From a bacterium (GTDB lineage Bacteria; Patescibacteriota; Patescibacteriia; Patescibacteriales; GWC2-42-12): DNA of 50,874 nucleotides. Below, in pieces: positions 13,568 to 30,275 of this stretch (position 1 is its first letter; the number at the start of each line of letters is the position of its first letter). The notes beneath the pieces were generated by a model. It made no database searches. It worked only from the letters and a program-made list of their open reading frames with translations, and was not told the DNA's origin. The stretch covers positions 1 to 50,874 of the forward strand of contig JAUSEG010000006.1 in assembly GCA_030650415.1 (NCBI GenBank), written 5' to 3'. A program made the translations under genes and the position numbers.

Positions 13568-13954
13568 AAAGATTTATTTATAAATCAAATTATTTGCGGC
13601 GATGCCGTTGATGTAATGAAAAAAATCCCAGATAATACTGTGCAACTGGTGATTACTTCACCACCTTACAATTTGAAAAATTCTACAGGAAACGGGATGA
13701 AAGATGGCCGCGGTGGAAAGTGGGCGAATGCCGCTTTGCAGAAAGGTTATTCTCATCATAACGACAATATGCCTCATGATGAATATGTAAAATGGCAGAG
13801 AGATTGCCTTGCGGAAATGTTTCGGATTATCCCTAATGATGGTGCGATTTTTTATAACCACAAATGGCGAGTGCAAGGCGGTGTTTTGCAGGGGCGTCAA
13901 GATATAGTTAACGGTTTTCCGGTTCGTCAAATTATAATTAAAAATGTATTATAA
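13568..13954 (+). pseudogene. N4/N6 DNA methyltransferase, N-terminal fragment only (fused in frame to the radC -1 frame)
   Basis: INQIICGDAVDVMKKIPDNTVQLVITSPPYN carries the SPPY catalytic motif. Similarity ends at VRQIII, where a W.K is expected. The AdoMet-binding C-terminal half is absent. Confidence 0.7.
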
Positions 13955-14165
13955 ACTCATGGCTCAATTAACGAAAAAACAAATCAAAAGACAGGATTTT
14001 GTGGATAACGAAATATTTGAGTTAATTAAACGGCTGGCGCCGTCCGCGAAAATTAAATGGGATATTGAGATAATAGCGGATGTTCGAGAATCAATACGAA
14101 TACAGCTTATTAATAAGAAAAAAATAAAAAGTGAAATGGGATTTTATCCATACATAAAAATATGA
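13944..14165 (+). CDS. Hypothetical protein (73 aa)
   Basis: Track ORF. Its stop overlaps the next start (ATGA at 14162-14165). Confidence 0.4.
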   Translation: MYYKLMAQLTKKQIKRQDFVDNEIFELIKRLAPSAKIKWDIEIIADVRESIRIQLINKKKIKSEMGFYPYIKI

Positions 14166-15199
14166 AACTCGAAGTTAGAGAATCGCAAATCGAAGATGTG
14201 TTTGTGAGTGCGGGCGTTCTAACGCGTCGCATTCTCAATCTTGAAGACGAACCACGACTGCTTGTGCGACAGATGATTTTACCTTCGGGACGGCTTGATT
14301 TATTGTATGCTTACCAAACCAAACTGCTTTTAATAGAACTGAAAGCTGTTAAATTCAAGCGCGATTTTTTGGATCAAGTATTGAACTATAAGAACGAACT
14401 TTTGGAATATCAGCAAAGAGGCAAATTGTTGCAAGGCGATATCGAATCGTTCTTACTGTGTACTGAAGCAACTTCGTTAGAAAAATCTTTAGCCGAAAAA
14501 AGAGGGGTAAATCTAACCAAATATGATCCGCAAGAGGTGTTAGGTTTTTTTTATAAAAATTTCAAGCCAATTGCTTTTTTTACCAAAACAAAACCGATAG
14601 ATATAGGAATTTGGAATCTGCATTTAGTACATGAATTTATTTATCTCTTAGAGCAAACAAATTCAGTCATTCGGTTGCGTGAGTTAATTGGCGGTTCCCA
14701 AAAGACCCTATATAACAAGATCAAGTTTGCTTTTGAGTTACGTTTGATTAATTGGTTACCCAACCAAGATAAAGTTTCTTTGACGAATTTGGGTAAACAG
14801 TATGTACAGAGCAAAGATAAAATTTTGTCTCAACGAATGAGCGAGGAACAAGCGGAACTGTTGCGGAGATTTGTTATCCAAAACCCTTATGAATCGTCGG
14901 TTATTTTGGGAATTGCGGCTGTCGTTGAATCAGTTTTTGCCTTGTCTAAGAATACTTATCCAGTGCCAATGGGGCACTTGATAGAATACTTTGCTTACTT
15001 TGCAGGTAAGTATTTTGATTGGCAAACGCCCAAAGCAAAATTTAACGCCACACGAATGTATTCTAATTATGCTGTTGATTTGGGATTACTAGCAAAAACA
15101 GACAATACGGTTTACCTTACACCCGAGGGATTTCGCTTTACGGTTCAAATGCAGCTGCATAAAAGTTTTAAAATGGTAGAGTCGTTACGAGTTTTTTGA
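14162..15199 (+). CDS. PD-(D/E)xK (NucS/DUF91-like) nuclease domain protein with C-terminal helical/wHTH-like region
   Basis: GRLDLLYAYQTKLLLIELKAVKF is a D...E.K nuclease core. The protein is 345 aa. Confidence 0.55.
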   Translation: MKLEVRESQIEDVFVSAGVLTRRILNLEDEPRLLVRQMILPSGRLDLLYAYQTKLLLIELKAVKFKRDFLDQVLNYKNELLEYQQRGKLLQGDIESFLLCTEATSLEKSLAEKRGVNLTKYDPQEVLGFFYKNFKPIAFFTKTKPIDIGIWNLHLVHEFIYLLEQTNSVIRLRELIGGSQKTLYNKIKFAFELRLINWLPNQDKVSLTNLGKQYVQSKDKILSQRMSEEQAELLRRFVIQNPYESSVILGIAAVVESVFALSKNTYPVPMGHLIEYFAYFAGKYFDWQTPKAKFNATRMYSNYAVDLGLLAKTDNTVYLTPEGFRFTVQMQLHKSFKMVESLRVF

Positions 15200-15221
15200 G
15201 GATAATCACTATACTAAAGTA

Positions 15222-15386
15222 ATGATGTTGCAAAAATTTAGTTTTGAAAAATTTCTAAACGCGCTTGAGCAAGGTAAAATATTTGTAGATTTTGACGCGC
15301 GGACGGGACATAATCATGGAACAAAGTTTAGAATGAAACAAGATTGTTTGCCGATGTTGTATGAAAAAGCGACAGTAATAATTTAA
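15222..15386 (+). pseudogene. MvaI/BcnI-family restriction endonuclease, C-terminal tail only (54 codons)
   Basis: MMLQKFSFEKFLNALEQGKIFVDFDARTGHNHGTKFRMKQDCLPMLYEKATVII. The DFDART...HNHGTKFR...LY block matches my memory of the C-terminus of this family. Confidence 0.5.
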
Positions 15387-15416
15387 CCTAATTTTGATTT
15401 TTTTAGAATTTTTTGT

Positions 15417-16109
15417 TTGAAATTATTTCGGCAAGCCGGACATAGTTTTAAAAAAAATATAAAGCGGTTATTTTTCTTGACTCTTGCTTTTAGCCCGGCT
15501 GTAAAAAAATGTAAACTCCAGGCTAATCGGATTTTAGACTTTAAGTTTGCTGACAGTACTGCTTGGCGAGTAGATTTTTCCGATGTATTTGAAAAATTTG
15601 TACAATATATATTTAAAGAAGTAGCGAAAGAATCCGGCGGGCGCTTGTTGGTAAATTATAAGTTTGATGGATATTCGCCTCGACAATACGCGTGGGAATT
15701 AAATTATCTTGAACCCGATGCAATATTACAGAAAGGTAAGGCGATAGTTATTATAGACGCAAAGTATAAATCTCACCTTTACAATAAATTTGGGGCCAGC
15801 GAAATTTTAAAAGAAGAACATAGGCGAGATTTGCATCAATTATTAGCGTACGTTTCGTTTAGCAAAACCGAAACAAAATTTGGCCTCCTATGCTATCCAT
15901 CGCAAGAAATTGAAATGAAAGAAATACAGTATCGTAACCCCATAAATCAAACTCTAAATAAAATAAAAATATTTGGCCTCCCATTAAAAAATAGTAGCGT
16001 TAGTGAGGCTAAGCGATTATTGTCAAATGAGTTAATGCTAATTGAAGAATTAAGCGATAATGAATCAAGCAAAATTTTGCATAGTACTCTTATGTTAAGA
16101 GGCGCATAA
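15417..16109 (+). CDS. McrC-like PD-(D/E)xK nuclease domain protein, probably N-terminally truncated; no McrB partner
   Basis: FEKFVQYIF...LEPDAILQKGKAIVIIDAKYKS is the McrC-type nuclease core. The track start is a TTG and the N-terminal 40 aa look non-native. Confidence 0.5.
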   Translation: MKLFRQAGHSFKKNIKRLFFLTLAFSPAVKKCKLQANRILDFKFADSTAWRVDFSDVFEKFVQYIFKEVAKESGGRLLVNYKFDGYSPRQYAWELNYLEPDAILQKGKAIVIIDAKYKSHLYNKFGASEILKEEHRRDLHQLLAYVSFSKTETKFGLLCYPSQEIEMKEIQYRNPINQTLNKIKIFGLPLKNSSVSEAKRLLSNELMLIEELSDNESSKILHSTLMLRGA

Positions 16110-16315
16110 AAATAGTATGTTCCCGCCAATTTTACTGGTAAACAATTTAACGGTTTGTACGCGGAAAAATTTGAAATTTAGCTATCATAAAAAATTATGC
16201 TATAATGTGTATATCTGCGGATAAGTCTTGACAAGTAAAATTTTTTAGAGTAATGTTGCTCTACTGGAAGTATCGCAGAAATATGGATGGAATTTCTTTG
16301 ATTTTGCTAAAATCA

Positions 16316-16353
16316 CCCACTCTGCTCCCTTCGGGGGGCACGGTGGGCTTTTT
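16316..16353 (+). terminator. Hairpin plus T5 in the leader of the NYN gene
   Basis: CCCACTCTGCTCCC, loop TTCG, GGGGGCACGGTGGG (one mismatch), then C and TTTTT. It ends 9 nt before the ATG at 16362. Upstream promoter-like sites are TGCTATAAT (16198-16206) and TTGACA-N17-TAATGT (16228-16256). Confidence 0.6.
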
Positions 16354-16361
16354 GTTATATT

Positions 16362-16925
16362 ATGCAAAAGAATGAAAGAGTCGCTGTTTTTATTGACGGC
16401 AGCAATTTATATCATAAGTTAAAGGAACTGCGTATTCCCAACACTATTAATTTTAGTTACGCGGGGTTATGCAAAAAACTTGCCCGAGGCAGGTAAATAA
16501 TTTTCTGCCGCTATTATGTCGGGGCTATTAGGGCCAAAGAAAATGATCAGAAAGGACAAAATCTCCGAGCTAATCAGCTAAGATTATTTAATAATTTAAC
16601 AGCGCAAGGATTTGTTATTAAGAAAGGAAATTTTTTGTTTAATAGCGGCGGTTATCATGAAAAAGGCGTTGATGTTAAATTGGCGGTTGATTTATTAGTT
16701 GGGGCGTATGATGATATATGGGATATCGCTATAATTATTTCATCTGATTCAGATTTAAACCCCGCGATAAAAAAAGTAAAACATCTGAACAAGAATGTTG
16801 AATATATAGGATTTTCTCATAGTCCCTGTTATTCATTGCAAAAAGTTTTATCGTTATCACGATTATTAATAAAAGATGATATAGAGGAATTTATTGCTTT
16901 TAAAAGCGGGGGCGGGCGCTTTTAA
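16362..16925 (+). pseudogene. NYN/LabA-like domain gene with one in-frame TAA (16494-16496)
   Basis: MQKNERVAVFIDGSNLYHKLKEL...LARGR, then a stop, then IIFCRYYVGAIRAKENDQKG...GVDVKLAVDLL...IIISSDSDLNPAIKKV. I verified that 16362 and the track ORF 16635..16925 share the same frame. Confidence 0.75.
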
Positions 16926-17071: not shown

Positions 17072-17203
17072 TATGCGACCGATTTTTGTTAATTCGCTTT
17101 ATTGAGGCGGTTTTTTATGCTATGATTAAATAATCAAGAATAAATTTTTTAGTCCTACCACCTTCTCCGTTCTCGGAAAGGTTGTGGTAATAAGAATAAA
17201 TTT

Positions 17204-20200
17204 ATGGAAAACGAAAATATTAATGTACCAGCAACGGAAAATATACCTCCGACCAAGCCATTATCGCCGCTCCAACCGAATAAGAAAAATAAACGAATTT
17301 GGCCGGGAATAGGCATAGTAATATTTTTAGCTTTAGTTGTTTTTATTTCAGCTTTCTTTTATTTTCAAACACGGACGACCGGTCCTTTAGGCGGCAAGAC
17401 CCCGGAAAGAAAAGATTTATTTAGCGGCTTTTCAAAACTAATTATCAGCGCTGCTAATGCCAATGATAACTTTACTTTAAAACCTTTAAACATTGATAGT
17501 TTGGGTGTTAAGGCTGATACGGTTTATGTGATAAAAAGCAAAGAACCCTTGAATACGGATATAATTAAAGACAATTTGCAAATTAAGCCTGATTTTCCTT
17601 ATGACTTTAAAAAAATTTCTGACACAGAATGGCATTTAGTACCGCGCCAGACCCTGCCGGCCAATACCTTAGTGCAGATTGCCTTAGCCACGGCTTATAT
17701 CGATGAGAATAATCAAACCCAAGAACGCGATTATTCCTGGGTATATCAAGTCAAGGATAGTTTTAAAGTGCTTCATAGTATTCCTCGTGACGCCGGCACG
17801 AATGTTCCGGTTAATACTGGTGTTGAGATTACTTTTAGCCATGACAATTACTACGATTATGAAAAATATTTTTCTATTAATCCTTCAGTTAAGGGAAAAT
17901 TTGAACAGCACGGCCGCACTTTAGTTTTCGTTCCAGAAACAACCTTAAATTTTAAAACCTTATATCAAGTTACGATTAAGCGCGGTTTGCCGTTAGCCGA
18001 TTCCGCGGAAACTTTAGCCTCTGATTATATTTTTACTTTTGAAACTCAGTTAGCCAGTAATGCCAAAGCTAATAATTGGTATGGAGTTTATGACCGATTG
18101 ATTGAGGCTAATTCCCAAGACGCGCCAATTATACAAGTTTCTTCTTATGCGGCGCCCGACCAGCTGGAAGTTGAAATTTTTCGTTTTAATGATTGGCAGG
18201 AATATTTAGAGTCAATCCGCGAACGTGATAATTTGCCCTGGTGGTCTTACAGTAAAGACGATTTTTTAATGGCTACCGCCAAATTAAAAAAGATCAGCAT
18301 CTTTACCGTACCGGTGAAGGCAAACAGCCAGGTAAAATACATCGAATTCCCAGAAAAGTTGCCCCCAGGTTTTTATTTAGCCGAATTGAAAAACAATAAC
18401 GATAAAGTGCAAGTCTGGATACAAGTAAGCGATTTATCAGCTTATTATAATGTGACAAAAACCCAGACGATTTTTTGGGTAAACGATAATATAAATAAAA
18501 ATCCGGTTAGCGGCGTTAAATTGGAATTACTTGATAGTTCATTATCGGTTTTAACCGACGCGCAGGGCGTGGCTGTATTTAAAACGCCGGACGAGATATT
18601 AAATAATGCCACTAACGAAAAAGTCGCTAAGCGCCAGTATTTTAAATTAAACAAAGACAATGGCACCTTAATTTTACCGGCCTCGCAAATTTCGCATGAT
18701 TGGTGGTGGAATCGTCCAGTCGCGGCTGATAATTACTGGCTCTATCTTTATACTGACCGGCCGCGCTATCAGACGACCGACACGATAAAATTTTGGGGGC
18801 TGGTTAAAGACCGCAGCTCTAAATCCATAAATGAAAAAGCCACTTTGACGCTTTTTAAGGAAGGGTATGTCGATTATTATTATCAACCGGTAGCCATTAT
18901 GAGCCAGGAGCTAAAAATTAGCGACTTGGATACTTTTAAGGGCGAGATGGCGATAAAAAATTTACGCCCCGATTATTACACCCTGGAATTAAAAATCGGT
19001 GAAATCGTGGTTAAACGAAGCTATATAACCATCATGCCTTATACCAAGCCAGCTTTTCAGTTAAGCCTGGTGCCGGATCATCATGCGGCTTTCGCCGGCG
19101 ATACGATTAATTTAAAAGTTAAAGCCAATTTTTTTGAAGGCACTCCGGTACCGGCTTTGTCGCTCAAGTTTGAAACTCCGGAAAAAGTAGAAAAAATATT
19201 TACTACCGATGAGAATGGGGAGGCTAATTTGACGTATACTGCAAATTATAATGATTGCCCTGACGATTACGGCTGTTGGCCGAAATCAACCAGATTATCA
19301 ATCTCGCCGGAAAATTCCGAACTGGCGGAAATCAGCGCTGAAACTTATGTTAATTTTTACGGCCCGAAAGTTTATCTTGAAAGTAAAACCATTTATCCTG
19401 CCAAAGGCCAGGGCCAGGTGGAAATGACCGCCAAGTTAATTGATTTGGCTAAACTGGAAACTGATGAATCGGGGAGTCGGAGTCTGGGCGACAGACCGGC
19501 GGCCGGAATTAAGATTGAAGGTGATTTAATAAAGACTTCATATGTTAAGAAGGAAACCGGCACAGCCTACGATTTTATCAACAAAACCAGCTATAAAACT
19601 TATAGCTACGACAGGCGCGAGGAAAAAGTCAGGAGTTTCAGCGGTATGACCGACCAAAATGGCCAATATATTTTTAAACAGCAGCTTGAACCGGAAATTT
19701 CCTACCAGCTCAAGTATCGCGTTATTGACAGCCAAGGCCGATTCGACAACCAGACCAATTATTTATATTACTATAACGGTATTTCCCTTAATCACTACGA
19801 TGGCTTTAACTACCAATATTATCATTTAAGCTTAACTGACCCCATAACCCAGCAAATTAAAACTTACTCGGTTAATGATCAAGTTAAGGCAATTTTTAAG
19901 AAAAATGATGAGCCGGTGCAAAATGGCAGCAACCGTTTTCTCTATCTAGAGCTCCAAAACGGCTTACAGGAATATCAGATTACCAGTAAAAACGAATACA
20001 ACTTTGCTTTTGAATCCCGCGATGTACCGAACGTTAATCTGGTTGGAGTTTATTTTGACGGCCAGTCGTACCACTCAACTGCCGCAAGCTACTGGGGCGA
20101 TTCGATCAATTTTAAAACCGCGGACAGGCAGCTAAAAGTCAAAGTTGAAACCGATAAAGATAACTACTTGCCCGGCGAAAATGTCAAATTAAATTTTGCG

Positions 20201-22699
20201 GTAACTGACATGAATAATAAACCCTTGCCGGCGGAAATAAACTTAAATTTAGTGGATGAAGCCTATTATGCGGTAGCCGAAGATACGGCCGCCCCCTTAG
20301 AATCAATTTATACCAACGTTGGCATGGGCACTTTGATGGCATTTTCTACCCATGAAAGCCTAGTTGATAGTTCTGGCGGCGCGGAAAAAGGCGGTTGTTT
20401 TACTGCCGGTACAAATATTTTACTGGCCGACGGGACGAATAAGCCGATAGAAAAAATGGCCGTAGGCGACCAGGTATTAACCTTTAGCGACCCGGTCAGC
20501 CGGCAATTAATCGTCGGCCGGGTAGAAGAGGTGGTTGAACATTTGGTCGGCGAATACCTGATTATCAACAAAAAAATCAAGATTACTCCGGAACACCAGG
20601 TTTTTTCCAATAATCATTTTGTTGATGCCGGCCGGTTGAAAGCAGGCGACTGGCTTTGGTCACCCGCCAGAGAAAAAGTCTTCGTGCGCGACATCGAAAT
20701 AAAGCATGAATTGGTAAAAGTCTATAACCTGCGCATTGACCCGCAGCATACTTACATTGCCGATGGCATTTGGGTTCATAATGCTGAAAAGGGCGGCGGA
20801 GCCAGAGAATATTTTACCGATGCCGCCGTCTTTCAGTCCGTCCGCACCGGCAGCGACGGCCGGGCAAATACCGAATTTAAACTACCGGATAACATCACTT
20901 CTTGGCGCGTGACAGCGCAGGGTTTAACTCAAGATTTATGGGCCGGGGTAAGTGTTACCAAGATCCCGGTATCTTTGCCGGTTTTTGCCGAAGTGACTAT
21001 CGGTAATGAATATTTAACCGCAGATAAACCCTTGGCGCGTTTACGCGCCTACGGTACTGCTTTGACTGCCGCCGACAAAGTTGATTTTTTATTGTCAGCT
21101 CCGACCTTAGGTTTAGATAAATCACCGATTCTTTCCGCCCCGGCTTTTAAGCCTGTCTATTATAATTTACCGGCGTTGTCCTTGGGTGAGCATAAAATCG
21201 TTTATGAATTAAAATCAGCCAAAGGCGATGACGCCATTAAGCTGCCGCTTCAGGTGGTTAGCTCGCGGCTGGCAGGACAGACGTCCCAAAGCAGCCAGCT
21301 TACTACCGAGACTAAGGTCAAAGCGATTAATAATTTCCCCATGGCGGTGGTGTTAAGTGATTTAGGCCGGAATGAACTTTACGACCCGCTGCTGAATTTA
21401 AGCTGGTCCTGGGGCGACCGTCTTGATCAAAAGTATGTCCGTAAATTAAGCCGGGAGGCTTTAAAAAAGTACTACCAGGAAGATATCATTGAGCCGGCTT
21501 TTAACCCTTTTGATTATCAGCTTTCCGGCGGCGGCCTGACTTTACTGCCGTATAGCAGTGAAGACTTGGAGTTTTCCGCCAGAGTGTCGGCCTTGGGCGC
21601 GGAGGCGTTTGACAAGATTTCTTTAGCCCAGTATTTTTATAAAAAGCTGGAGGACAATCAGGCTAATCGCGAGGAAATTAGTTATGCTTTGTTCGGTTTG
21701 GCCGAATTAGGCGAGCCGGTACTAACCAGGATTAACTCTTGGCTGAAGCGGACCGACTTAAGCCCCAAGGAGCAACTTTATCTGGCCCAAGCGCTGGTTG
21801 ATTTAGGAGCTAAAGAGTTGAGTCAGACAATTTTTTATGGAGTTTTAAAGCAATACGGCGAGGAAAAATTACCGCAAATCGTCATCCGCGTCAGCAACAA
21901 TTACGATGAAGTCTTCCAGGCTACGGCCATCGCCGCAGTCTTGGCCGCTTCGCTCGACGTTAGCGAAGCCAAGGGCTTGTTTAAATATTTAGCAGAGAAC
22001 CAGGCTTTATACGGCCAAAATAAAAACAGTGAGAATTTGTTTAGCTTGGAAAAATTAAATTATATAAAACATGTTTTACCTAATTTAAAACCCAGCCCGG
22101 CCAAAGTAGCCTATGAATTAGCGGGTGAAACCAAAGAAGTTAATGTTACCGGCAGTAATTTATATTCTTTCCAATTGGCTCCGGAACAAGCCGGCAGCCT
22201 TAATTTTAAGTCCGTTACCGGCCAGGTAGGAATTTCCGTACGCTACCTAGAAACGTTGGACTTAAATAAAGTTAAACGCGACAGCGATATAAGCGTTAGG
22301 CGAGAATATTACGTTAACGGAGCGCCAACCACGCAAATTAAGGAAAAAGATTTAGTGGAAGTCAGGCTTTATCCGGTTTTTAACAAACAAGCCCTGTCCG
22401 GCAATTACCAGATTACCGATATATTGCCGAGCGGCTTAGCGCCGGTTACTAAATTATATTACCGCGGTAATAATTATGAATGCAATTATTGGTATCCTTA
22501 TAACACCGACGGGCAAATGGTCAAATATTTTATTAATCGGGATTGGCGCAGTAATTATTGCGGCGGCGATTATATTAAATATTATGCGCGCGTAAAAAAT
22601 CGCGGAGTTTATTCGGCTGAACCCGCTATTATCCAATCGTTTGTCAACCCCGATTTTATTAATTACTCTAATTCCCAAAGCATAACCATTGCCGAATAA
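17204..22699 (+). CDS. Membrane-anchored alpha-2-macroglobulin-like giant protein (no thioester motif) with inserted Hint domain
   Basis: The protein is 1831 aa with an N-terminal TM helix (IWPGIGIVIFLALVVFISAFFYF). The post-bait A2M block is REYFTDAAVFQSV...FKLPDNITSWRVTAQG. The C-terminal part is a helical TED-like region in which SWGDRLDQ replaces the GCGEQ thioester site. Confidence 0.8.
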   Translation: MENENINVPATENIPPTKPLSPLQPNKKNKRIWPGIGIVIFLALVVFISAFFYFQTRTTGPLGGKTPERKDLFSGFSKLIISAANANDNFTLKPLNIDSLGVKADTVYVIKSKEPLNTDIIKDNLQIKPDFPYDFKKISDTEWHLVPRQTLPANTLVQIALATAYIDENNQTQERDYSWVYQVKDSFKVLHSIPRDAGTNVPVNTGVEITFSHDNYYDYEKYFSINPSVKGKFEQHGRTLVFVPETTLNFKTLYQVTIKRGLPLADSAETLASDYIFTFETQLASNAKANNWYGVYDRLIEANSQDAPIIQVSSYAAPDQLEVEIFRFNDWQEYLESIRERDNLPWWSYSKDDFLMATAKLKKISIFTVPVKANSQVKYIEFPEKLPPGFYLAELKNNNDKVQVWIQVSDLSAYYNVTKTQTIFWVNDNINKNPVSGVKLELLDSSLSVLTDAQGVAVFKTPDEILNNATNEKVAKRQYFKLNKDNGTLILPASQISHDWWWNRPVAADNYWLYLYTDRPRYQTTDTIKFWGLVKDRSSKSINEKATLTLFKEGYVDYYYQPVAIMSQELKISDLDTFKGEMAIKNLRPDYYTLELKIGEIVVKRSYITIMPYTKPAFQLSLVPDHHAAFAGDTINLKVKANFFEGTPVPALSLKFETPEKVEKIFTTDENGEANLTYTANYNDCPDDYGCWPKSTRLSISPENSELAEISAETYVNFYGPKVYLESKTIYPAKGQGQVEMTAKLIDLAKLETDESGSRSLGDRPAAGIKIEGDLIKTSYVKKETGTAYDFINKTSYKTYSYDRREEKVRSFSGMTDQNGQYIFKQQLEPEISYQLKYRVIDSQGRFDNQTNYLYYYNGISLNHYDGFNYQYYHLSLTDPITQQIKTYSVNDQVKAIFKKNDEPVQNGSNRFLYLELQNGLQEYQITSKNEYNFAFESRDVPNVNLVGVYFDGQSYHSTAASYWGDSINFKTADRQLKVKVETDKDNYLPGENVKLNFAVTDMNNKPLPAEINLNLVDEAYYAVAEDTAAPLESIYTNVGMGTLMAFSTHESLVDSSGGAEKGGCFTAGTNILLADGTNKPIEKMAVGDQVLTFSDPVSRQLIVGRVEEVVEHLVGEYLIINKKIKITPEHQVFSNNHFVDAGRLKAGDWLWSPAREKVFVRDIEIKHELVKVYNLRIDPQHTYIADGIWVHNAEKGGGAREYFTDAAVFQSVRTGSDGRANTEFKLPDNITSWRVTAQGLTQDLWAGVSVTKIPVSLPVFAEVTIGNEYLTADKPLARLRAYGTALTAADKVDFLLSAPTLGLDKSPILSAPAFKPVYYNLPALSLGEHKIVYELKSAKGDDAIKLPLQVVSSRLAGQTSQSSQLTTETKVKAINNFPMAVVLSDLGRNELYDPLLNLSWSWGDRLDQKYVRKLSREALKKYYQEDIIEPAFNPFDYQLSGGGLTLLPYSSEDLEFSARVSALGAEAFDKISLAQYFYKKLEDNQANREEISYALFGLAELGEPVLTRINSWLKRTDLSPKEQLYLAQALVDLGAKELSQTIFYGVLKQYGEEKLPQIVIRVSNNYDEVFQATAIAAVLAASLDVSEAKGLFKYLAENQALYGQNKNSENLFSLEKLNYIKHVLPNLKPSPAKVAYELAGETKEVNVTGSNLYSFQLAPEQAGSLNFKSVTGQVGISVRYLETLDLNKVKRDSDISVRREYYVNGAPTTQIKEKDLVEVRLYPVFNKQALSGNYQITDILPSGLAPVTKLYYRGNNYECNYWYPYNTDGQMVKYFINRDWRSNYCGGDYIKYYARVKNRGVYSAEPAIIQSFVNPDFINYSNSQSITIAE
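20396..20782 (+). other. Hint / mini-intein-like (BIL-type) domain, aa 1065-1193 of the A2M-like protein
   Basis: It starts CFTAGTNILLADG (block A). It contains ITPEHQVF (block B TxxH). It ends VYNLRIDPQHTYIADGIWVHN (blocks F/G). The +1 residue is Ala. No endonuclease domain is present. Confidence 0.8.
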
Positions 22700-23610
22700 T
22701 GAATAAACTATCCAATAATATAATTATCATTATCGGTTTGAGCTGTTGTCTGGTATTATTGTTTTGTTTTTGGTTTATCAAACCGTTAAAATTATCACCG
22801 CATCCGGCTGACAAACAAAATATTTCAAATTTGCCACTAGTGGAAATGCAAGACAGTTTTTATAACCGAGAACAATTTTTTTCAGCCATAAAAAAGGCCG
22901 ATGAAATAATACCTCAATCCGATGTCTACGCGATTATTGTGCCGCATCACTTGGTCGGCGCCGATATCATAGCCGAACTGATAAAAATAGCTAGTGGCCG
23001 GCAAATTAATACGGTGGTTGTTATCGGGCCTAATCATGAAAATGTCGGCCGCGAACCGCTGGCTAGCGCGCCGGTTAATTGGCAGACGCCCGAAGGTGAT
23101 TTGCCCGCCAACGTTAAGCTGGAGGAATTATTTTTAACCGACAACCGGCTACAGCCTAACCCATCGGCGCTGGAAAAAGAACATTCAGTCGGCGCGATAA
23201 TGCCATTTATTAAGCATTATTGGCCCCAAGCGCAAGTCCTGCCTATAGTTTTATCTTCTTATGCCGGAAAAGCCGGAGCTGAAAAATTAAGCGATTGGCT
23301 TAAAAGCCGTTTAGGAAAAAACTGTCTGGTTATTTTTTCCCTTGACTTTTCCCATTATCTGACGAAAGGGGAAGCGGATTTAAAAGATGAAGAAACCAAA
23401 AATTTAATAGAAAATTTTTTAATTGATAAAATTTACAACTTAAATAACGACTATCTGGATTCGCCGGCCGGTCTGGCTACGGCCATGCTGTTGGCGCAAA
23501 AATCCGGTCTTAAAGTTTCTTTTATCCGTCATAGTAATTCCTTTGATTACGCCATCTCTAAACCGGCGGCCACCACCAGTTATTTTGGGATTGCGTTTAC
23601 AAGCGAATAG
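22699..23610 (+). CDS. Memo-like / AmmeMemoRadiSam system protein B family, N-terminal TM anchor
   Basis: The order IIVPHH..., EHSVGAIMPF and LDFSHY follows the Memo/LigB-type metal site. The start ATG shares its A with the TAA of the upstream gene (TAATG). Confidence 0.6.
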   Translation: MNKLSNNIIIIIGLSCCLVLLFCFWFIKPLKLSPHPADKQNISNLPLVEMQDSFYNREQFFSAIKKADEIIPQSDVYAIIVPHHLVGADIIAELIKIASGRQINTVVVIGPNHENVGREPLASAPVNWQTPEGDLPANVKLEELFLTDNRLQPNPSALEKEHSVGAIMPFIKHYWPQAQVLPIVLSSYAGKAGAEKLSDWLKSRLGKNCLVIFSLDFSHYLTKGEADLKDEETKNLIENFLIDKIYNLNNDYLDSPAGLATAMLLAQKSGLKVSFIRHSNSFDYAISKPAATTSYFGIAFTSE

Positions 23611-23673
23611 TTATGGATTTTTATGACTATTGGCGAATCGCCTTTTTGTATTGAAGTAAAATTATAAAATTTC

Positions 23674-23864: not shown

Positions 23865-24899
23865 ATGCCTGAAAATAAGATGAAAATTTTAATCGATTCG
23901 TTAAGGAGGGATTTATTGTCCGCCAAACTTATCAATGATACGGAAAAAATTTGGCGTCAGTATTTTGGCGGCAGCGGCTCCATAAAATTAGCCCTGAAAG
24001 AGATAAAGAATTTGCCGGTGGCTGAAAAAAAAGCCAAGGCGCCGCTTATGCAACGGCTTAATCAGGAGGCTCTTGATTTATTTAAGGAGAAAGAGAAATC
24101 TTTAAAAAATGATAAGTTGAAATTGGAACTCGAAGCCGGCGCGGAAGAGTTAAATTATAATTTGCCGAAAATCGGCCATCTCCATCCGATATCGCAGACA
24201 ATCAGAGAAATGAACAAGCTCTTTATAAGCATGGGCTTTAGTATTATGGATGGACCTGAAATAGAAAAAGACGAATATTGTTTCCAAAGGTTGAATGTTC
24301 CAATTGATCATCCGGCCAGAGACATGCAGGATACGATTTATATCAAAGAGCCCAATTTTTTATTAAGGACGCAAACTTCTTCAGTTGAAGCAAGGGTTAT
24401 GGAAAATTACAAGCCGCCGTTTAAAATTGTTTCGCCCGGTCGAGTTTATCGGAATGAAAATGTTAATAAAAGTAATCATTTTATTTTTCATCAATACCAA
24501 GGGCTGGTAGTTGTTGAAAAGACAAGTATGAAAGATTTATTTGGAACTCTTGATGTTTTGTTTAAAAAAATGTACGGTTCGGAGGTAGTCGTTCGTTATC
24601 GCAATAAATATTATCCGGAAGTTGAGCCGGGCGTGGGGCCGGACATGCAATGTTTCAATTGCCATGGCAAAGGATGCTCATTATGTAAAGGCATCGGTTG
24701 GATTGAAATGGGTGGCGCCGGCATTATTCATCCCGATGTTTTAAAAATGGCCGGGATTGATCCTAAAAAATGGATGGGATTCGCTTTTGGTTTGGGGCTC
24801 GATCGCTGGGTCATGGCTAAATATAACATTACGGATATTAGAACCTTATTAGGCGGTAATTTAGGTTATAAATATTACGAAAATGAAAATACTATATAG
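23865..24899 (+). CDS. pheS: Phenylalanine--tRNA ligase alpha subunit
   Basis: Class II motifs HPARDMQDT, YRNENV and GFAFGLGLDRW. The gene is followed by pheT. Confidence 0.9.
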   Translation: MPENKMKILIDSLRRDLLSAKLINDTEKIWRQYFGGSGSIKLALKEIKNLPVAEKKAKAPLMQRLNQEALDLFKEKEKSLKNDKLKLELEAGAEELNYNLPKIGHLHPISQTIREMNKLFISMGFSIMDGPEIEKDEYCFQRLNVPIDHPARDMQDTIYIKEPNFLLRTQTSSVEARVMENYKPPFKIVSPGRVYRNENVNKSNHFIFHQYQGLVVVEKTSMKDLFGTLDVLFKKMYGSEVVVRYRNKYYPEVEPGVGPDMQCFNCHGKGCSLCKGIGWIEMGGAGIIHPDVLKMAGIDPKKWMGFAFGLGLDRWVMAKYNITDIRTLLGGNLGYKYYENENTI

Positions 24900-26847
24900 C
24901 CAAATTAAAGAATTAGTGCCCGGTCTAAAAGCCGGTCCGAAAGAAGTGGGGGAAGCTTTAAGCTTAACCGGTTTTATGATGGACAGTTTTAGCGAAGTTC
25001 TATGTAAAGGAGCTAAAGATTATTTGATCGGACTAGAAATCAGGCAAAATCGCGCTGATTGTCTTAGCGTTTTAGGTTTGGCGAGAGAAGTTGCCGCCTA
25101 CTACAACCTTAAAATCTCAATGCCGAAAGTTAAGCCAGTGGCCGGGAAGGGAAAACAATTGGATATTAAGATAGAGGCGGCTGATTATGTAAAGCGAGTT
25201 TTGGCGGTTCAAATTGATGGAATTACAAATAGAGAATCGCCGGATTGGCTTAAGGAGTATGTCGCCTTCTATGGTTTAAACAGCATAAGCCTCTTAGTTG
25301 ATTTATCAAATTATGTCATGCTGCTAACCGGCTATCCGTCGCATTTAATCGATTACAAAAAAATAACCGGTCAAGTATCATGGTCGTTAAATCGTAATTT
25401 TGACCAGATGACGACTCTATTAGGAGCTTCGGTAAAGTTGCAAAAGAATACCGAACTGATAATTAGAGACGAAAAAAATATTTTAGCTTTGGCTGGCATA
25501 GTTGGCGGGACAGAAGCGGCCATTGGCATGGAAACAACCTCGATTATCGCCGAAGTCGCAGTTTACAACCGCTCGATCGTTAGAAAAAATTCAAGGAGTT
25601 TAAGCATCACAACCGAGGCGAGCCACCGCCTGGAGAAGGAGATTGATTCAACCAGTTCATACTATGCCCTGCAATTACTGGTTTTTTTGATTATTAAATA
25701 TGCCGGAGGCGATGTCTCCAGCGGATTATTCGATTATTATCCGAAAGAACATCTTTCTCCAATAATAAAATTTGACACCAGTCTGCCCGGTAAATTTTCG
25801 GGTGTTGAAATTTCCGAGAAAAATGCGCTTAAAATATTAAAGAATTTGGATTTTAGCATTGCCAAAAAACCTGGTTCATTCTTTGTTTCCCCGCCTATTT
25901 ACAGGATGGACGTTTCAATAGCTGAAGATCTGGTTGAAGAAGTTATTAGAATGCATGGCTATAATAAAATACCTTCGAATGAAATTCCTAAGCTTGAAAT
26001 AGTCCAAGAGATTACCCCTAAAAATATCATTTTGACAGAAAAAATCAGAGACATTTTAGCTGCTTTGGGTTTCGATGAAATTTTATCGTGGCCGTTAACG
26101 AAGACTGGTGATAACGAACAGGTTAATTATCTCGATTGGAACATGGTTGCTGCGCAGAATTCATTTAATGACGCCTATCCTAACCTACGGCAATCGATAA
26201 CGGTCGGATTATTAAATCAATTGAATGAATATATCAAAAAGAAGGTTGATTTTATAAATATTTTTGAAATTGGTAAAGTTTTTGGCGAGAAGAACGGTGA
26301 ATATATGGAACATGAAGCGTTGGGAATAATCTCGACTTCAAACGTAGAGGCAATAGCAGAGTTTAAAAATAAAACGGAATCGTTATTACGTTTGATAGGG
26401 CTTGGCGATATTAAATATTTTGAGGCCGCAGCCAAACCAAAAATAGCCAATGCCAGTTCCTGTTGGGAAATTTATGCCAGCGGAGAAAATATCGGGATTT
26501 TTTATAAACTTATCCCGCAGGAAGCAAAGCTAAACGTGTATTCTGCGGAAATAAACATAACCAAAATAACCGGGCTGCTCTTAAAGATACAAAACAATCC
26601 GGTGGTTGAGATTACCCAAAAATTAATCACCCTTGACGCCAATATAGAGCTAAGCGCCAAAGAATCAATTTATAAGTATTTAGATAAACTTGAAAAAAAA
26701 TTGAATAAAAATCATATCTGGAGCGTAAATGTTGCCGATACTTATCCTTTGGGAGAGAAAGTCAGATATACCTTGCGAGTGACCTATCAGGAATTATCCG
26801 ACCAGGATGCCAAAAAAATCCATCTAAAAATTTTTGAATTAAAATAA
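24883..26847 (+). CDS. pheT: Phenylalanine--tRNA ligase beta subunit (short form, 654 aa)
   Basis: NRADCLSVLGLAREVAAYY is the typical PheT block. The gene overlaps pheS by 17 nt. Confidence 0.85.
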   Translation: MKILYSQIKELVPGLKAGPKEVGEALSLTGFMMDSFSEVLCKGAKDYLIGLEIRQNRADCLSVLGLAREVAAYYNLKISMPKVKPVAGKGKQLDIKIEAADYVKRVLAVQIDGITNRESPDWLKEYVAFYGLNSISLLVDLSNYVMLLTGYPSHLIDYKKITGQVSWSLNRNFDQMTTLLGASVKLQKNTELIIRDEKNILALAGIVGGTEAAIGMETTSIIAEVAVYNRSIVRKNSRSLSITTEASHRLEKEIDSTSSYYALQLLVFLIIKYAGGDVSSGLFDYYPKEHLSPIIKFDTSLPGKFSGVEISEKNALKILKNLDFSIAKKPGSFFVSPPIYRMDVSIAEDLVEEVIRMHGYNKIPSNEIPKLEIVQEITPKNIILTEKIRDILAALGFDEILSWPLTKTGDNEQVNYLDWNMVAAQNSFNDAYPNLRQSITVGLLNQLNEYIKKKVDFINIFEIGKVFGEKNGEYMEHEALGIISTSNVEAIAEFKNKTESLLRLIGLGDIKYFEAAAKPKIANASSCWEIYASGENIGIFYKLIPQEAKLNVYSAEINITKITGLLLKIQNNPVVEITQKLITLDANIELSAKESIYKYLDKLEKKLNKNHIWSVNVADTYPLGEKVRYTLRVTYQELSDQDAKKIHLKIFELK

Positions 26848-27040: not shown

Positions 27041-27799
27041 ATGGCGAAGAAACATAAAATTATTATTTATGGCTTGAGCCTGGCGTTAGCGATCGCGGCC
27101 TATCTCTTATTGGCGCATTTTTTCATTTTTTATCGCATTAAAACCGCCGGGTTAATCGCGCCGGATCGGCAGGACATCTATGTTATCGGCGCGGATAAAA
27201 CTATGGCTAAAAATTTATTATATGTTGCCTTGGGCGATAGTTTAACTGCCGGCGCGGGCGTGTTTAAGTATGAAGAATCTTATCCTTATTTATTAACCCG
27301 GAGTCTGGCCGGCGGAAAAGCGGTCGGAGCAAGCCTAAAGAATTTTTCTTATCCCGGAGCTAAGACGTCTGATTTAATAAAGGGTTTGCTGGCGCCGGCC
27401 GTGGAGGCTCAGCCGGATTTAGTTACTTTATTAATCGGCACTAATGATATTTTCGGCGGCGTTAGCCGGGCGGTTTTTAAAAAAAATTATCAGTATATAT
27501 TAGAACGTTTAACTAAGAAAACCCAAGCTAAAATTTATTTAATTAATCTGCCTCATCTTGGTACGCCTAAACTGCTCTTAACGCCTTACGATTATTATTA
27601 CGCCTGGCGCACCGATCAATTTAATAAAATTATCAGAGAATTGGCCGAAAAGTATAATCTAAATTATATTGACTTGGATCGGTCGACCAGGGCTGAATTT
27701 AAAAAAGATCGTTTACTATACGCGAAAGATTTATTTCATCCGTCGGCGGCCGGTTATAAGCTTTGGGCGCGAATAATTTATGACGATATCAATAAATAA
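27041..27799 (+). CDS. SGNH/GDSL hydrolase, membrane-anchored
   Basis: ALGDSLTAG is the GDS block, GTND is also present, and DLFHPS is the C-terminal D..H block. Confidence 0.8.
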   Translation: MAKKHKIIIYGLSLALAIAAYLLLAHFFIFYRIKTAGLIAPDRQDIYVIGADKTMAKNLLYVALGDSLTAGAGVFKYEESYPYLLTRSLAGGKAVGASLKNFSYPGAKTSDLIKGLLAPAVEAQPDLVTLLIGTNDIFGGVSRAVFKKNYQYILERLTKKTQAKIYLINLPHLGTPKLLLTPYDYYYAWRTDQFNKIIRELAEKYNLNYIDLDRSTRAEFKKDRLLYAKDLFHPSAAGYKLWARIIYDDINK

Positions 27800-28928
27800 C
27801 CCGGTCGAATCAACTTATATTTTTGCCGCCATACTCTTAGTGGCGATTATAGTTTGGACGCGCCGGCGCCGAGGCGGTGATTTTTTTCCGCCCGAAGCAA
27901 CTCAAGAGCTTAAAGGCTTGGCGATTTTAGCCATAGTTTTTTCGCATATCGGCTATTTTTTAATTTCCGGACAAAAATTTCTTTTTCCTTTATCGGTTAT
28001 GGCCGGAGTGGGCGTAAATTTATTTTTATTTTTATCCGGTTACGGCCTGACCGCCAGTTCCATAAAAAGCAAGTTTACATGGAAAAAAATTGGGCAATTC
28101 TATCGGTGCCGCTGGTTAAAATTATTTATGCCTTTTTGGCTGACTTTGGCAGTTTTTTTTCTTTTAGATTATTTTTTGCTTGATTTAAATTATGGCCTAA
28201 GCTATCTGGTTCAGTCTTTTTTAGGATTTTTTCCTCGAGCCGATTTATATAATGACGTTAATTCACCTCTCTGGTATTTTAGCTTGATTTTGTTTTACTA
28301 CTTGCTTTTCCCCTTGGTTTTTCTCCTGAGAAATCATCGCCTGTCGGCGCTAGCGGTTTATTTAATCACTTACTTAATAATCTGGTTGAATCCCGGTTAT
28401 TTAAGCCAGGTTATGCATCTATACAAGGTTCATATCCTGGCTTTTCCTCTAGGCATGCTCTTCGCCAGCCTGTATTATGAACCGAATAATTTTTTAAATC
28501 AGGTCGTTTTTCGCATTCGGAGCCTGGTTTCAGGAAGTTCATCCGGAGTTAAATATTTTAAAAAAATCTTTTACTGGATTTTTGTAATAATTCTTTTAGC
28601 CATCGCCGTCTATACGGCAGATTATTCGAATATCGGCAGCTACAAGGAAGAATTTACCAGTATCATTACCATGTCGGCGCTGATAATTCTATTTTTAATT
28701 AAGAAAATTAATTTTGGCTTTTTATATATTGTAGGCGTATATTCTTATGAAATATACTTGCTCCATTGGCCGATTCTTTACCGCTACGAAATGTTTTATG
28801 GGTCCATGCCGGCTTGGCTGGCGACCGCCCTGTATTTATTATTGTTTTTAATTCTCGGCTTGGCGTTAAAAAAAGTTTCGGAGGTGGTTTTGAAATTTTT
28901 TAATCGAGGGGAGAAAATAGTTAATTAA
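27780..28928 (+). CDS. Acyltransferase-3 family membrane protein (O-acyltransferase)
   Basis: LKGLAILAIVFSHIGY is the N-terminal motif. The protein has about 10 TM segments and its gene overlaps the SGNH gene by 20 nt. Confidence 0.75.
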   Translation: MTISINNPVESTYIFAAILLVAIIVWTRRRRGGDFFPPEATQELKGLAILAIVFSHIGYFLISGQKFLFPLSVMAGVGVNLFLFLSGYGLTASSIKSKFTWKKIGQFYRCRWLKLFMPFWLTLAVFFLLDYFLLDLNYGLSYLVQSFLGFFPRADLYNDVNSPLWYFSLILFYYLLFPLVFLLRNHRLSALAVYLITYLIIWLNPGYLSQVMHLYKVHILAFPLGMLFASLYYEPNNFLNQVVFRIRSLVSGSSSGVKYFKKIFYWIFVIILLAIAVYTADYSNIGSYKEEFTSIITMSALIILFLIKKINFGFLYIVGVYSYEIYLLHWPILYRYEMFYGSMPAWLATALYLLLFLILGLALKKVSEVVLKFFNRGEKIVN

Positions 28929-28931
28929 TTT

Positions 28932-30275
28932 ATGAAACAGCGATTGGCAAAATTAATTCCAGCCGGCAGCGTGGTTTTAGGCATTACTATTTTAATTTCC
29001 TATTCATTGGGCTTGGTCCGCGATCATTATTTCGCCCGGATTTTTGGCGCTAGCCGGGCCTTAGACGCTTACAACGCGGCTTTTTTAATTCCCGATTTGC
29101 TATTTAATATTCTGGTCGCGAGCGGCATCGCCGCGGCTTTCGTTCCGGTCTTAACCGGGCTTTTAAAGCTGGACGCAAAGCGCGCCGCCGAATACGCCAA
29201 TTCGGTTATTACGGCCGCTATCGGATCGATGATTATTACTTCGGCGATTATTATGGTTTTTGCCGGTCCGATTAGCGCCTTGGTGGTTCCCGGCTTTGAT
29301 TTAACGGATCGAGCTCTAGTAGCTAAAATTCTTCGCGTCTTGGCTATTTCGCCGATATTTTTCGGCATCTCTAATGCCATCGGCGCCATGCTTGTCACTA
29401 AGCGGCGTTTTCTCTATTACGGCCTGTCGCCGGTTTTATATAATTTGGGAATTATCGGCGGTACGATTTTCCTCGCTCCGCGTTTTGGAATTATGGGCGT
29501 GGCTTTTGGCACGGTCGGCGGAGCCTTTCTTCATTTCGCCGTCAGATGGTTTGACGCGCGGCGGTCCGGCTTTGTTTTTAGTTTTAAACATGCCTTTAAG
29601 ACCGCGGAATTTAAGCAAACGATTAAGCTGATGCTGCCGAAAATGTTCGGCCACCCAATCGAGCTCGCGACTTTTTGGGCCTTTACGGCCATTAGCTCCA
29701 CCTTGGTTCCCGGCTCGGTGGCGGTTATGAGTTTTGCCAGAAATTTTGAAAGCGTGCCGGTCAGCCTAATCGGCATAACCATCGCTACCACGACTTTTCC
29801 GATTTTAGCCATGACGATTGTCGATCGTTCGGTTGAACGCTTCCGGAAAGTTTTAAGAAATTCTTTTCTGCTAATATTTTTTACGAGCATCGCCGCCGCT
29901 TTGGTGACTTTCTTGATTAGAGAACCCTTGGTTAGCTTGGCTTTAGGCGGCGGAGCGTTTAAGGCCGGCGACATTGAGAGAACAGCCATGGCTCTAGGCG
30001 TCTTTACTTTGGCCATACCGGCCGAGGCTTCAATTCAGCTCTTGGCGCGCGCTTTTTATGCCACAAAAAACACGATCATTCCGGTCGTGCTAAGTATCGC
30101 GGGTTTTATTATTTCGGTCGGCGGCGCCTATTTACTCGTGCCGCGCTATGAGATTTTAGCTTTGCCGCTGGGATTTTTTATGGGCGGGGCGGTGGAATTA
30201 GTTTTATTAGGATTCTTAATTTCTATAAGGACAAAAAAATTGTTTGATCATGTCGCTAAAAATGAAATACTTTAA
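28932..30275 (+). CDS. murJ: Lipid II flippase MurJ
   Basis: LGLVRDHYFARIFGASRALDAYNAAFLIPDLLFNILVASGIAAAFVPVL matches the MurJ/MviN N-terminal signature. Confidence 0.8.
   Translation: MKQRLAKLIPAGSVVLGITILISYSLGLVRDHYFARIFGASRALDAYNAAFLIPDLLFNILVASGIAAAFVPVLTGLLKLDAKRAAEYANSVITAAIGSMIITSAIIMVFAGPISALVVPGFDLTDRALVAKILRVLAISPIFFGISNAIGAMLVTKRRFLYYGLSPVLYNLGIIGGTIFLAPRFGIMGVAFGTVGGAFLHFAVRWFDARRSGFVFSFKHAFKTAEFKQTIKLMLPKMFGHPIELATFWAFTAISSTLVPGSVAVMSFARNFESVPVSLIGITIATTTFPILAMTIVDRSVERFRKVLRNSFLLIFFTSIAAALVTFLIREPLVSLALGGGAFKAGDIERTAMALGVFTLAIPAEASIQLLARAFYATKNTIIPVVLSIAGFIISVGGAYLLVPRYEILALPLGFFMGGAVELVLLGFLISIRTKKLFDHVAKNEIL

Follow-up and report, generated by a model that had tools for sequence, protein, structure and literature searches.

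The 50,874-nucleotide contig JAUSEG010000006.1, which comes from a genome of the Patescibacteriota and was analysed as a whole (the window), encodes an alpha-2-macroglobulin (A2M)-fold surface protein of 1831 residues (aa) that carries in its interior a 129-residue domain of the Hedgehog/intein (Hint) type. This domain is almost certainly a domesticated mini-Hint, similar to the type A bacterial intein-like (BIL) domains, that has become permanent in the Gly/Glu-rich loop at the bait position of a membrane-anchored A2M-fold surface protein of the Candidate Phyla Radiation (CPR). The features of the gene are as follows, with coordinates numbered from the first letter of the window.

17204..22699 (+): A2M-fold surface protein, host of the Hint, 1831 aa, 207 kDa (open reading frame (ORF), Pfam, AlphaFold2 (AF2) and Foldseek)
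17297..17368 (+): N-terminal hydrophobic segment, aa 32-55, IWPGIGIVIFLALVVFISAFFYFQ (hydropathy)
19859..20272 (+): A2M_BRD match, aa 886-1023, the macroglobulin (MG) domain before the bait (Pfam E 4.5e-9, above the curated cut-off)
20333..20395 (+): N-side linker, aa 1044-1064, predicted disordered, with a variable stretch of ~8 aa and then the conserved G-A-E-K-G-G; Gly1064 is the -1 residue
20396..20782 (+): mini-Hint, type A BIL-like, 129 aa, aa 1065-1193 (Pfam, TIGR01443, PDB search)
20396-20398 (+): codon of Cys1 of the Hint, Cys1065 (ORF translation)
20585-20596 (+): block-B TPEH, aa 1128-1131 (ORF translation)
within 20396..20782 (+): block F of the Hint, VYNLRIDPQHTY
20777-20782 (+): terminal His-Asn, H1192-N1193 (ORF translation)
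20783..20803 (+): C-side flank AEKGGGA, aa 1194-1200; Ala1194 is the +1 residue
20789-20791 (+): codon of Lys1196 (Lys in 64/64 clusters)
20804..20998 (+): start of the post-bait MG domain, R-E-Y-F...LPDNITSWRV, with the Pfam A2M match at aa 1208-1265 (Pfam; aligned to human A2M 721-806)
21371..22084 (+): helical domain resembling the thioester domain (TED), aa ~1390-1627 (AF2 helices, hhalign)
21407-21430 (+): former thioester site SWGDRLDQ, aa 1402-1409 (hhalign)
22289..22654 (+): C-terminal MG domain, bMG10-like, aa 1696-1817 (weak Pfam match; covered by hhalign)

The host protein is assigned to the A2M/C3 superfamily, with an MG array, a bait-region domain, a CUB-TED insert and a C-terminal MG domain, because Pfam, profile and structural comparisons all lead there. 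Its Pfam matches are Big_5, MG2, A2M_BRD, PT-HINT, A2M and bMG10, the profile of its family matches Escherichia coli ECAM/YfhM (E 4e-23) and human A2M, and profile-profile alignment (hhalign) with bacterial A2Ms reaches a probability of 100%. An AF2 model of aa 701-1831 (mean pLDDT 82.8) retrieved ECAM (5a42, E 1e-38) with Foldseek, as well as Sa-A2M, C4, C5, CD109 and A2ML1 (E 1e-38 to 1e-30). Over the entire protein, hydropathy peaks in the windows at aa 32-54, and the segment at aa 32-55 is probably a signal-anchor, in which case most of the protein would lie outside the cytoplasm. There are only five cysteines in the protein, Cys1 of the Hint among them.

The preliminary description of this DNA had recognized a 129-aa Hint domain with TPEH and IADGIWVHN at aa 1065-1193, and the ORF translation, Pfam, TIGR01443 and the PDB entry 2lwy all confirm it. 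The domain opens CFTAGTNILLADG and closes IADGIWVHN, reading CFTAGTNILLADG...ITPEHQ...VYNLRIDPQHTYIADGIWVHN, and is followed by Ala1194 at +1. The Pfam model PT-HINT matches aa 1080-1194 (E 3e-13, over its curated cut-off), with weaker matches starting from residue 1064/1065 to Hom_end_hint, Hint, Vint, Intein_splicing and Hint_2, while the NCBIfam model TIGR01443 (intein_Cterm) scores 18.2 against a cut-off of 15.6. Among solved structures, the bacterial intein-like domain 2lwy is the closest in sequence, at E 2.5e-8 when a single sequence is the query and at 4.5e-17 when the family profile is used; mini-intein structures such as 2in0 and 5k08 are also matched by the profile. All of the sequence features of a type A BIL are present, namely similarity in blocks A, B, F and G, Cys1, T-x-x-H, a terminal His-Asn and a non-nucleophilic +1 residue, the C-terminal His-Asn being the feature that divides type A from type B BILs (PMC4031507). 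With known type A BILs, such as Clostridium thermocellum BIL4 (2lwy), the window domain shares the mini-Hint fold, Cys1, T-x-x-H, a block F of the form 'VYN...HTY', the His-Asn end, the lack of a +1 nucleophile and a secreted or surface-exposed host. The known domains, however, occur in variable regions of secreted proteins and toxins, whereas the window Hint has a fixed place in many CPR classes, in one homologous loop of a conserved multidomain scaffold, and its clade is marked by Lys at +1/+2 and by Gly-rich flanks. No second Hint copy was found in the window. An ORF of 100 aa on the opposite strand, 20308..20610 (-), overlaps the Hint coding sequence; chance ORFs are expected opposite a long gene, and this is most likely one of them.

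Class 1 mini-inteins, such as those of RecA and DnaB, resemble the window Hint in size and in blocks A, B, F and G, but the window Hint lacks their Cys, Ser or Thr at +1, has Asn in place of Asp in the 'VYN' of block F, resides in an extracytoplasmic host and appears to be inherited vertically rather than sporadically. A classical class 1 intein was rejected on the grounds of the missing +1 nucleophile, the covariation of Hint and host identity and the absence of a homing endonuclease, none being contained in the 129-aa mini-Hint. A different reading is suggested by the top Pfam match, PT-HINT, and by the name 'polymorphic toxin-type HINT domain-containing protein' that relatives bear at NCBI, according to which the domain would be the pre-toxin Hint of a polymorphic toxin and would release a C-terminal toxin. 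The PT-HINT domains (PF07591) of CdiA, MafB and Rhs-type proteins do share with the window Hint their best Pfam model and a presumed autoproteolytic release, but here the Hint is internal to an A2M fold and is accompanied by neither a C-terminal toxin nor an immunity gene. The 638 aa that follow it are the conserved MG-CUB-TED-like-MG region (hhalign 100%, Foldseek) and not a variable toxin, and the next gene encodes a conserved Memo-like protein, not an immunity protein. Release of a toxin is thus extremely unlikely, and the reading that the NCBI name implies is refuted by the domain content.

That the Hint sits at the bait position, as the preliminary description had proposed, follows from both the order of the domains and alignments with A2Ms of known bait. 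In the window protein the Hint lies between the Pfam matches A2M_BRD (886-1023) and A2M (1208-1265), and with the family profile ECAM 815-874 aligns just before the Hint and ECAM 936-1000 just after it, while human A2M 721-806 aligns from the last Hint residues onward. The disordered bait of ECAM is Arg923-Leu942 (PMC4498604) and that of human A2M comprises residues 690-728 (PMC8267569). Since the alignments bracket or adjoin the known baits, the Hint is placed at the bait position. In the AF2 model the Hint (model residues 365-493) hangs between two low-confidence linkers, aa 1044-1064 and aa 1194-1198, the former (model residues 344-364) having pLDDT <50, and both linkers leave and re-enter one MG scaffold domain. 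Just beyond the C-side flank, Arg1201 is invariant in 64/64 Hint-bearing clusters.

The loop at the bait position is Gly-rich except for the variable stretch of ~8 aa, and its general pattern in Hint-bearing members is AE.GG / Hint / [AQE]?[DE]KGG. Hint-less CPR homologues have at the same site a Gly/Glu-rich loop of 18-23 aa of the type GAE.GG-(E/G)GG (for example GGAEKGGGGDGGG, GGAEQGGEGGAL and MAEGGGEGGGENI), and in Firmicute homologues the site is taken up by 34-66 variable residues. It had been reported previously that the pentapeptide AEKGG stands at both junctions, with its two DNA copies differing only in third codon positions. This is true in the window, where the copies at 20381-20395 (GCGGAAAAAGGCGGT) and 20783-20797 (GCTGAAAAGGGCGGC) differ at just three third-codon positions, which are every synonymous site able to differ. 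The exact AEKGG/AEKGG pair is rare, being found among the protein clusters in the window protein, P0002, P0072 and P0077, and also in four of the fetched genomes; P0001 has AEKG before the Hint. A target-site duplication or other recent duplication of DNA was rejected as the source of the pair, given that the synonymous sites have diverged, that the Hint-less loops have the motif and that most members are without the exact repeat. The Hint instead lies in the middle of a GAE.GG-(E/G)GG loop that Hint-less homologues already carry, and the repeat is therefore read as an older Gly/Glu-rich loop motif that has been split by the Hint. The Lys that follows His-Asn is of a different nature. It is absent from the Hint-less loops and is typical of the nearest non-A2M Hints, so it is assigned to the Hint unit.

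A protein search of 5.8 billion protein clusters gave 104 proteins, of which the top 85 were put into one alignment with the window protein (86 members). These 85 include 63 that bear the Hint, down to 27% identity, and 22 Hint-less relatives of 1610-1760 aa; the 63 clusters (formed at 90% identity) and the window protein make up the 64 Hint-bearing sequences referred to here as clusters. In a scan of one genome per GTDB species, the Hint-A2M arrangement was found in at least 147 species-representative genomes, and 80 loci were fetched from 147 genomes. Cys1, the terminal His-Asn, the block-B His and Lys1196 are invariant in 64/64 clusters, the block-B Thr is present in all but two, which have Ser, Gly occupies -1 in 63/64, and a Lys at +2 or +3 is found family-wide. 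The length of the Hint is 129 aa in 62 clusters and 130 aa in the other 2. All 80 fetched genomes have Gly(-1), Cys1-Phe2 and a Hint of 128-130 aa ending in ...VHN. At +1 the clusters have E (26), Q (15), D (15), A (5), G (1), T (1) and S (1), and the genomes D (39), E (23), Q (10), A (4), S (3) and N (1), such that the +1 residue is a non-nucleophile in 139 of the 144 sequences and Ser or Thr in 5. The earlier preference for a BIL-like domain over a classical intein, founded on the Ala at +1 in the window, is supported.

The preliminary description had also considered that the domain might be a common invariant part of this family with no catalytic residues. An invariant part it is, but the catalytic residues are all intact. 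Another reading is that of a silent insert, which would remain unprocessed and have a role in structure or binding, or else plug the bait channel. Nothing specific favours it, though AF2 models the precursor without difficulty, and the residues for the N-S shift and for Asn cyclisation are invariant over the 144 sequences, which go down to 27% host identity, while other Hint positions vary; a silent insert is considered very unlikely. Within the family, Hint and host identities rise and fall together in pairwise comparisons (Pearson 0.79), identity is 52% in the Hint versus 45% in the remainder of the host, and the GC of the Hint (0.463, versus 0.425 for the gene) stands at the 72nd percentile among windows of the same size. 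This covariance, the slower change of the Hint than of its host and the unremarkable GC point to purifying selection and to mostly vertical descent of the Hint with its host. A recent horizontal insertion was rejected, as the GC is normal for the gene and Hint and host distances covary. The sole intein-like trait is a patchy distribution, as forms with and without the Hint intermingle in a rough neighbour-joining tree (without support values).

The titles of the fetched loci name Magasanik-, Peregrini-, Morani-, Collier-, Falkow-, Parcu-, Gracili-, Portnoy-, Kerfeld-, Nomura-, Shapiro-, Gottesman- and Saccharibacteria. Some uncultured metagenome-assembled genomes (MAGs) are titled differently, with Gammaproteobacteria or Pseudomonadales for loci L006, L010, L012, L024 and others and 'Nanoarchaeia archaeon' for L021. 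Such Gammaproteobacteria and Nanoarchaeia titles look like wrong or placeholder taxonomy. The DNA of L006 is 85% identical to that of the window, and among labelled relatives the one closest to the window is a Patescibacteria MAG.

When 1.84 billion representatives were searched with a profile, 888 clusters reached E <= 1e-30. Of the top 147 representatives, 60 are multi-Hint proteins, some with type IV pilin-like N-termini, and in these the Hint is followed by KGG in 68/165 cases and by KGC in 20/165. The closest non-A2M relatives of the Hint are in P0107, P0114, P0116, P0117 and P0121, where 2-5 or more Hints stand in tandem, separated by just 'KG', 'KP' or 'GKGGGG', in some of them behind a type IV pilin-like N-terminus (e.g., ...GFTLVEI...). 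A Lys directly after His-Asn is the rule in these tandem-Hint proteins.

The thioester of the A2M superfamily has been lost from the window protein. The preliminary description had noted SWGDRLDQ in place of a GCGEQ-type site, and this is upheld by hhalign against thioester-bearing bacterial A2Ms (probability 100%, E 1e-57), which sets L-S-WSWG-DRLDQ opposite Y-P-F-G-C-V-E-Q. The Cys has thus become Arg with an extra Asp ahead of it, the Glu has become Asp and the Gln is kept. CxEQ is present at this site in 0/86 aligned family members, the 22 Hint-less relatives included. Loss of the thioester is already known in bacterial type II A2Ms such as MagD (PMC5764988). With bacterial A2Ms in general the window protein shares the MG ring, the bait-region domain, the CUB and TED-like domains, the C-terminal MG domain and N-terminal membrane anchoring. 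Type I proteins (ECAM/YfhM, Sa-A2M) have CxEQ, unlike the window protein, and are encoded beside pbpC; the type II protein MagD, which belongs to the six-gene mag operon, has no thioester, and this is shared by the window protein (PMC5764988). The window protein differs from the bacterial A2Ms in the Hint in its bait, its short Gly-rich loop and its Memo-like partner, as well as in its host, which belongs to the CPR and is not Gram-negative. No pbpC or mag genes were seen beside the A2M gene in the window.

Six of the 80 genomes, however, encode Hint-bearing A2Ms with an intact YPYGC.EQT.

L027, 5148-10451: thioester-bearing Hint-A2M
L063, 5631-10610: thioester-bearing Hint-A2M
L066, 5547-10649: thioester-bearing Hint-A2M
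L070, 2058-7157: thioester-bearing Hint-A2M
L073, 2305-7125: thioester-bearing Hint-A2M
L084, 3981-10529: thioester-bearing Hint-A2M

All six look more canonical as A2Ms, with strong Pfam matches to MG2, A2M_BRD, A2M, TED_complement and bMG10. Each carries the same Hint with unchanged flanks, after A2M_BRD and before A2M, and the YPYGC.EQT follows the Hint by ~225 residues. Three of them give long BLASTP alignments with the window protein at about 25-27% identity, and the other three just shorter alignments around the Hint at 33-39%. The Hints of the six and those of the thioester-minus members share 48-54% identity, and by bit score the former are nearer to other A2M Hints than to the Hints of multi-Hint proteins. 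These proteins are classed as a second CPR subfamily. As there are 22 Hint-less relatives without CxEQ and six Hint-bearing proteins with it, loss of the thioester and presence of the Hint are judged to be uncoupled, and the Hint would be tied to the bait loop as such.

This uncoupling bears directly on the suggestion, made in the preliminary description, that the thioester formed by Cys1 of the Hint replaces the lost TED thioester. As a general rule it was rejected. The mechanism would be covalent capture or attachment in the manner of Hedgehog, in which an external nucleophile (a Lys of a protease, an amine of the cell wall or host surface, or a lipid) resolves the Gly1064 thioester and ends up linked to the membrane-anchored N chain. 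The Gly-Cys-Phe junction is invariant and resembles the Hedgehog cleavage site, the Hint is located where proteases dock on A2Ms, and the host is without CxEQ. On the other hand, CxEQ and TED are kept by six Hint-bearing A2Ms and the thioester is also missing from 22 Hint-less relatives, His-Asn is invariant although a transfer of the Hedgehog type does not need it, and the bare 129-aa Hint core has no region for recognition of an adduct. Capture of this type is accordingly regarded as quite unlikely. The C-terminal domain of Hedgehog, Hh-C, does have the Hint fold, the Gly-Cys-Phe junction and the use of a thioester beyond splicing (PMC7664689) in common with the window Hint, but it is C-terminal, with a sterol-recognition region and neither His-Asn nor a C-extein, whereas the window Hint is internal, has His-Asn and is followed by 638 aa.

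The activity that we consider most plausible, in agreement with the preliminary description and on the basis of the Hint features and the bait position, is self-cleavage, with an even chance that the Hint autocatalytically breaks the Gly-rich bait loop by the established chemistry of such domains. After export and folding, Cys1065 would carry out an N-S acyl shift at Gly1064-Cys1065, helped by Thr1128 and His1131, and Asn1193 would cyclise with the help of His1192. With no nucleophile at +1, the chain would be broken at one or both junctions, and ligation by the freed alpha-amine would be a side or alternative route. The 207-kDa precursor would thereby yield a membrane-anchored N chain of 121 kDa and a C chain of 71 kDa, with the 14.7-kDa Hint freed or dangling, and the two chains would stay joined, since each of them contributes to the MG domain around the bait. 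The Hint would thus act from within as a protease does on the bait of A2M, or a convertase or furin on C3/C4/C5, and its cut would mature or fire a scaffold whose loop is otherwise Gly-rich and probably protease-resistant. The cut could be immediate or triggered, with thiols, pH, contact and the Memo-like partner as candidate triggers.

Self-cleavage is ranked first for several reasons. A +1 nucleophile is avoided in the family, although in tested BILs a single change at +1 was enough for efficient splicing and those without a +1 nucleophile gave mainly cleaved products (PMC7664689, PMC4031507); efficient canonical splicing does not seem, therefore, to be under selection. The loop is Gly-rich, and a Gly-Ser bait introduced in human A2M was uncut by every tested protease (PMC8267569). 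The fragments predicted for the window protein, 121 + 71 kDa, resemble those of bait-cleaved Sa-A2M (102 + 77 kDa) and MagD (91 + 74 kDa) (PMC5764988). The A2M fold, moreover, works as two chains cut at the bait loop. Self-cleavage is also favoured by the invariance of the catalytic residues and of Gly(-1), by the closer conservation of the Hint than of its host and by the disordered linkers on either side of the Hint. In complement C3, C4 and C5 the same loop of the same MG domain is cut (furin site, ANA domain) and the two chains stay assembled. Foldseek matches connect the window protein with C4 and C5, but complement proteins are cut by external proteases, whereas the cut by the window Hint would be autocatalytic. 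Weak support comes from the AF2 model, which was compared with native structures and with protease- or methylamine-activated structures of ECAM, A2M, CD109, A2ML1 and C5, and which fits the activated forms (4rtd, 4ziq, 6tav, 9fx3, 7q62; TMq 0.32-0.41) better than the native forms (5a42, 4u48, 7von, 8s3o, 7q1y; TMq only 0.19-0.24).

Several points weigh against self-cleavage. The conformation of an AF2 model is unreliable evidence of state. Type A BILs are also able to splice by aminolysis (PMC4031507), and an A2M scaffold that holds both flanks close would favour ligation. The window loop minus the Hint is 21 aa, in the same length class as the Hint-less loops of 18-23 aa. If the cut were constitutive, the thioester of the six thioester-bearing relatives would be fired and wasted, so that at least in those six the cut would have to be delayed or triggered, or the loop re-ligated. 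The main rival is non-canonical splicing by aminolysis, in which a thioester at the N junction would be attacked by the alpha-amine that cyclisation of Asn sets free on the +1 residue at the C junction. The Hint would be excised, as in effect a tolerated, intein-like passenger, and the loop rejoined (...GGAEKGG-AEKGGGARE...), for a calculated product of 192.6 kDa. Such a mechanism has been described for type A BILs (PMC4031507). Both flanks exit the same MG domain on flexible Gly-rich linkers, which would keep the amine beside the thioester, the 21-aa loop of the excised product matches the Hint-less ones, thioester-bearing members need an intact bait for latency, and the intermingling of forms with and without the Hint in the rough tree is expected if precise loss is harmless. 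Cleavage products nevertheless dominate in tested BILs, and a Ser, Thr or Cys at +1 would help splicing greatly yet is found in just 5/144 sequences. The Lys after His-Asn is invariant only where the Hint is present and absent from Hint-less loops, which argues that the flank is tuned to the Hint and not to the mature loop, and the Hint is more conserved than its host, which is unusual for a passenger. Splicing is hence a tentative alternative, possible but less probable than self-cleavage of the loop.

A more speculative reading, which we consider unlikely, is that CPR episymbionts possess an A2M/TEP-type machine for which the Hint is a built-in trigger independent of proteases, operating via covalent fixation and/or isopeptide chemistry at Lys. 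In thioester-bearing members the Hint cut would expose the TED thioester for covalent fixation nearby, e.g., to the surface of a host cell, while thioester-less members such as the window protein would fire the same change without covalent fixation. The near-invariant Lys at +1/+2 ('HN-(x)-K-G-G') might also resolve the Hint thioester by its epsilon-amine, giving an isopeptide-linked branched splice product. A keyword search of the literature found no description of a natural Hint-Lys isopeptide as precedent. The timing could be controlled by the extracytoplasmic Memo-like partner.

The components of this system are each known, but their combination, a Hint within the bait of an A2M, is without description in the literature found, as no paper was found that joins alpha-2-macroglobulin with a Hint or intein-like domain. 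Judged by titles and abstracts, the PT-HINT papers listed (15 of 17) concern mainly toxin systems or general genomics, and none of these is about A2M. A search on macroglobulins and CPR bacteria gave just the remark that membrane proteins of Vampirococcus with A2M domains may be defensive, with no mention of a Hint. The known proteins of the A2M/C3 family are all fired by an external protease that cuts one loop. If self-cleavage is true, the window protein would be the first of the A2M/C3 superfamily with an autocatalytic trigger or a device for self-maturation, and its Hint would be among the few recruited to a fixed host function besides that of Hedgehog, as opposed to selfish splicing or toxin release. 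The host is a large conserved surface protein of the CPR/Patescibacteria, whose surface biology and host attachment are little known. The compact 129-aa Hint with its Gly-rich flanks might also serve as a cleavage or ligation tool.

The gene that follows the A2M gene encodes a protein that is a conserved partner of the A2M and is predicted to be membrane-anchored.

22699..23610 (+): Memo-like gene of the Memo/AmmeMemoRadiSam-B family, with its own N-terminal hydrophobic segment (Pfam Memo E 2e-20)

The assignment is also supported by TIGR04336 (110 bits versus a cut-off of 26). Searched by sequence against the PDB, the Memo-like protein matched no entry. The start codon overlaps the A2M stop codon by one base in TAATG, as had been described earlier for this locus. 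Of the 74 loci with room for it, 51 have a Memo-like gene immediately downstream in the same orientation, and such a gene also stands beside that of the Hint-less P0071. It accompanies the thioester-bearing A2Ms of L063, L070 and L073 and is upstream in L027. No AMMECR1 or radical-SAM gene was evident beside the Memo-like gene in the window. In the nearest genomes, L005 and L006, nucleotide identity to the window (91% and 85%, respectively) is confined to the A2M and Memo-like pair (17202-23612), and the flanks are unrelated, so that the gene pair resides in different neighbourhoods in close relatives.

Other neighbours of the A2M gene in the window are pheS/pheT (23865-26847), beyond the Memo-like gene, and fragments of defence genes. 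The latter are in a region upstream of the A2M gene (13103-16925) that looks like a decayed defence or restriction region, with a RadC-JAB fused to a partial N6/N4 DNA methylase, a 230-aa ORF that corresponds only to the C-terminal part of McrBC and a 96-aa NYN fragment. After pheS/pheT there is a cell-envelope cluster, 27041-30275 (+), that encodes a GDSL-like lipase/acylhydrolase, an acyltransferase_3 protein and a MurJ flippase.

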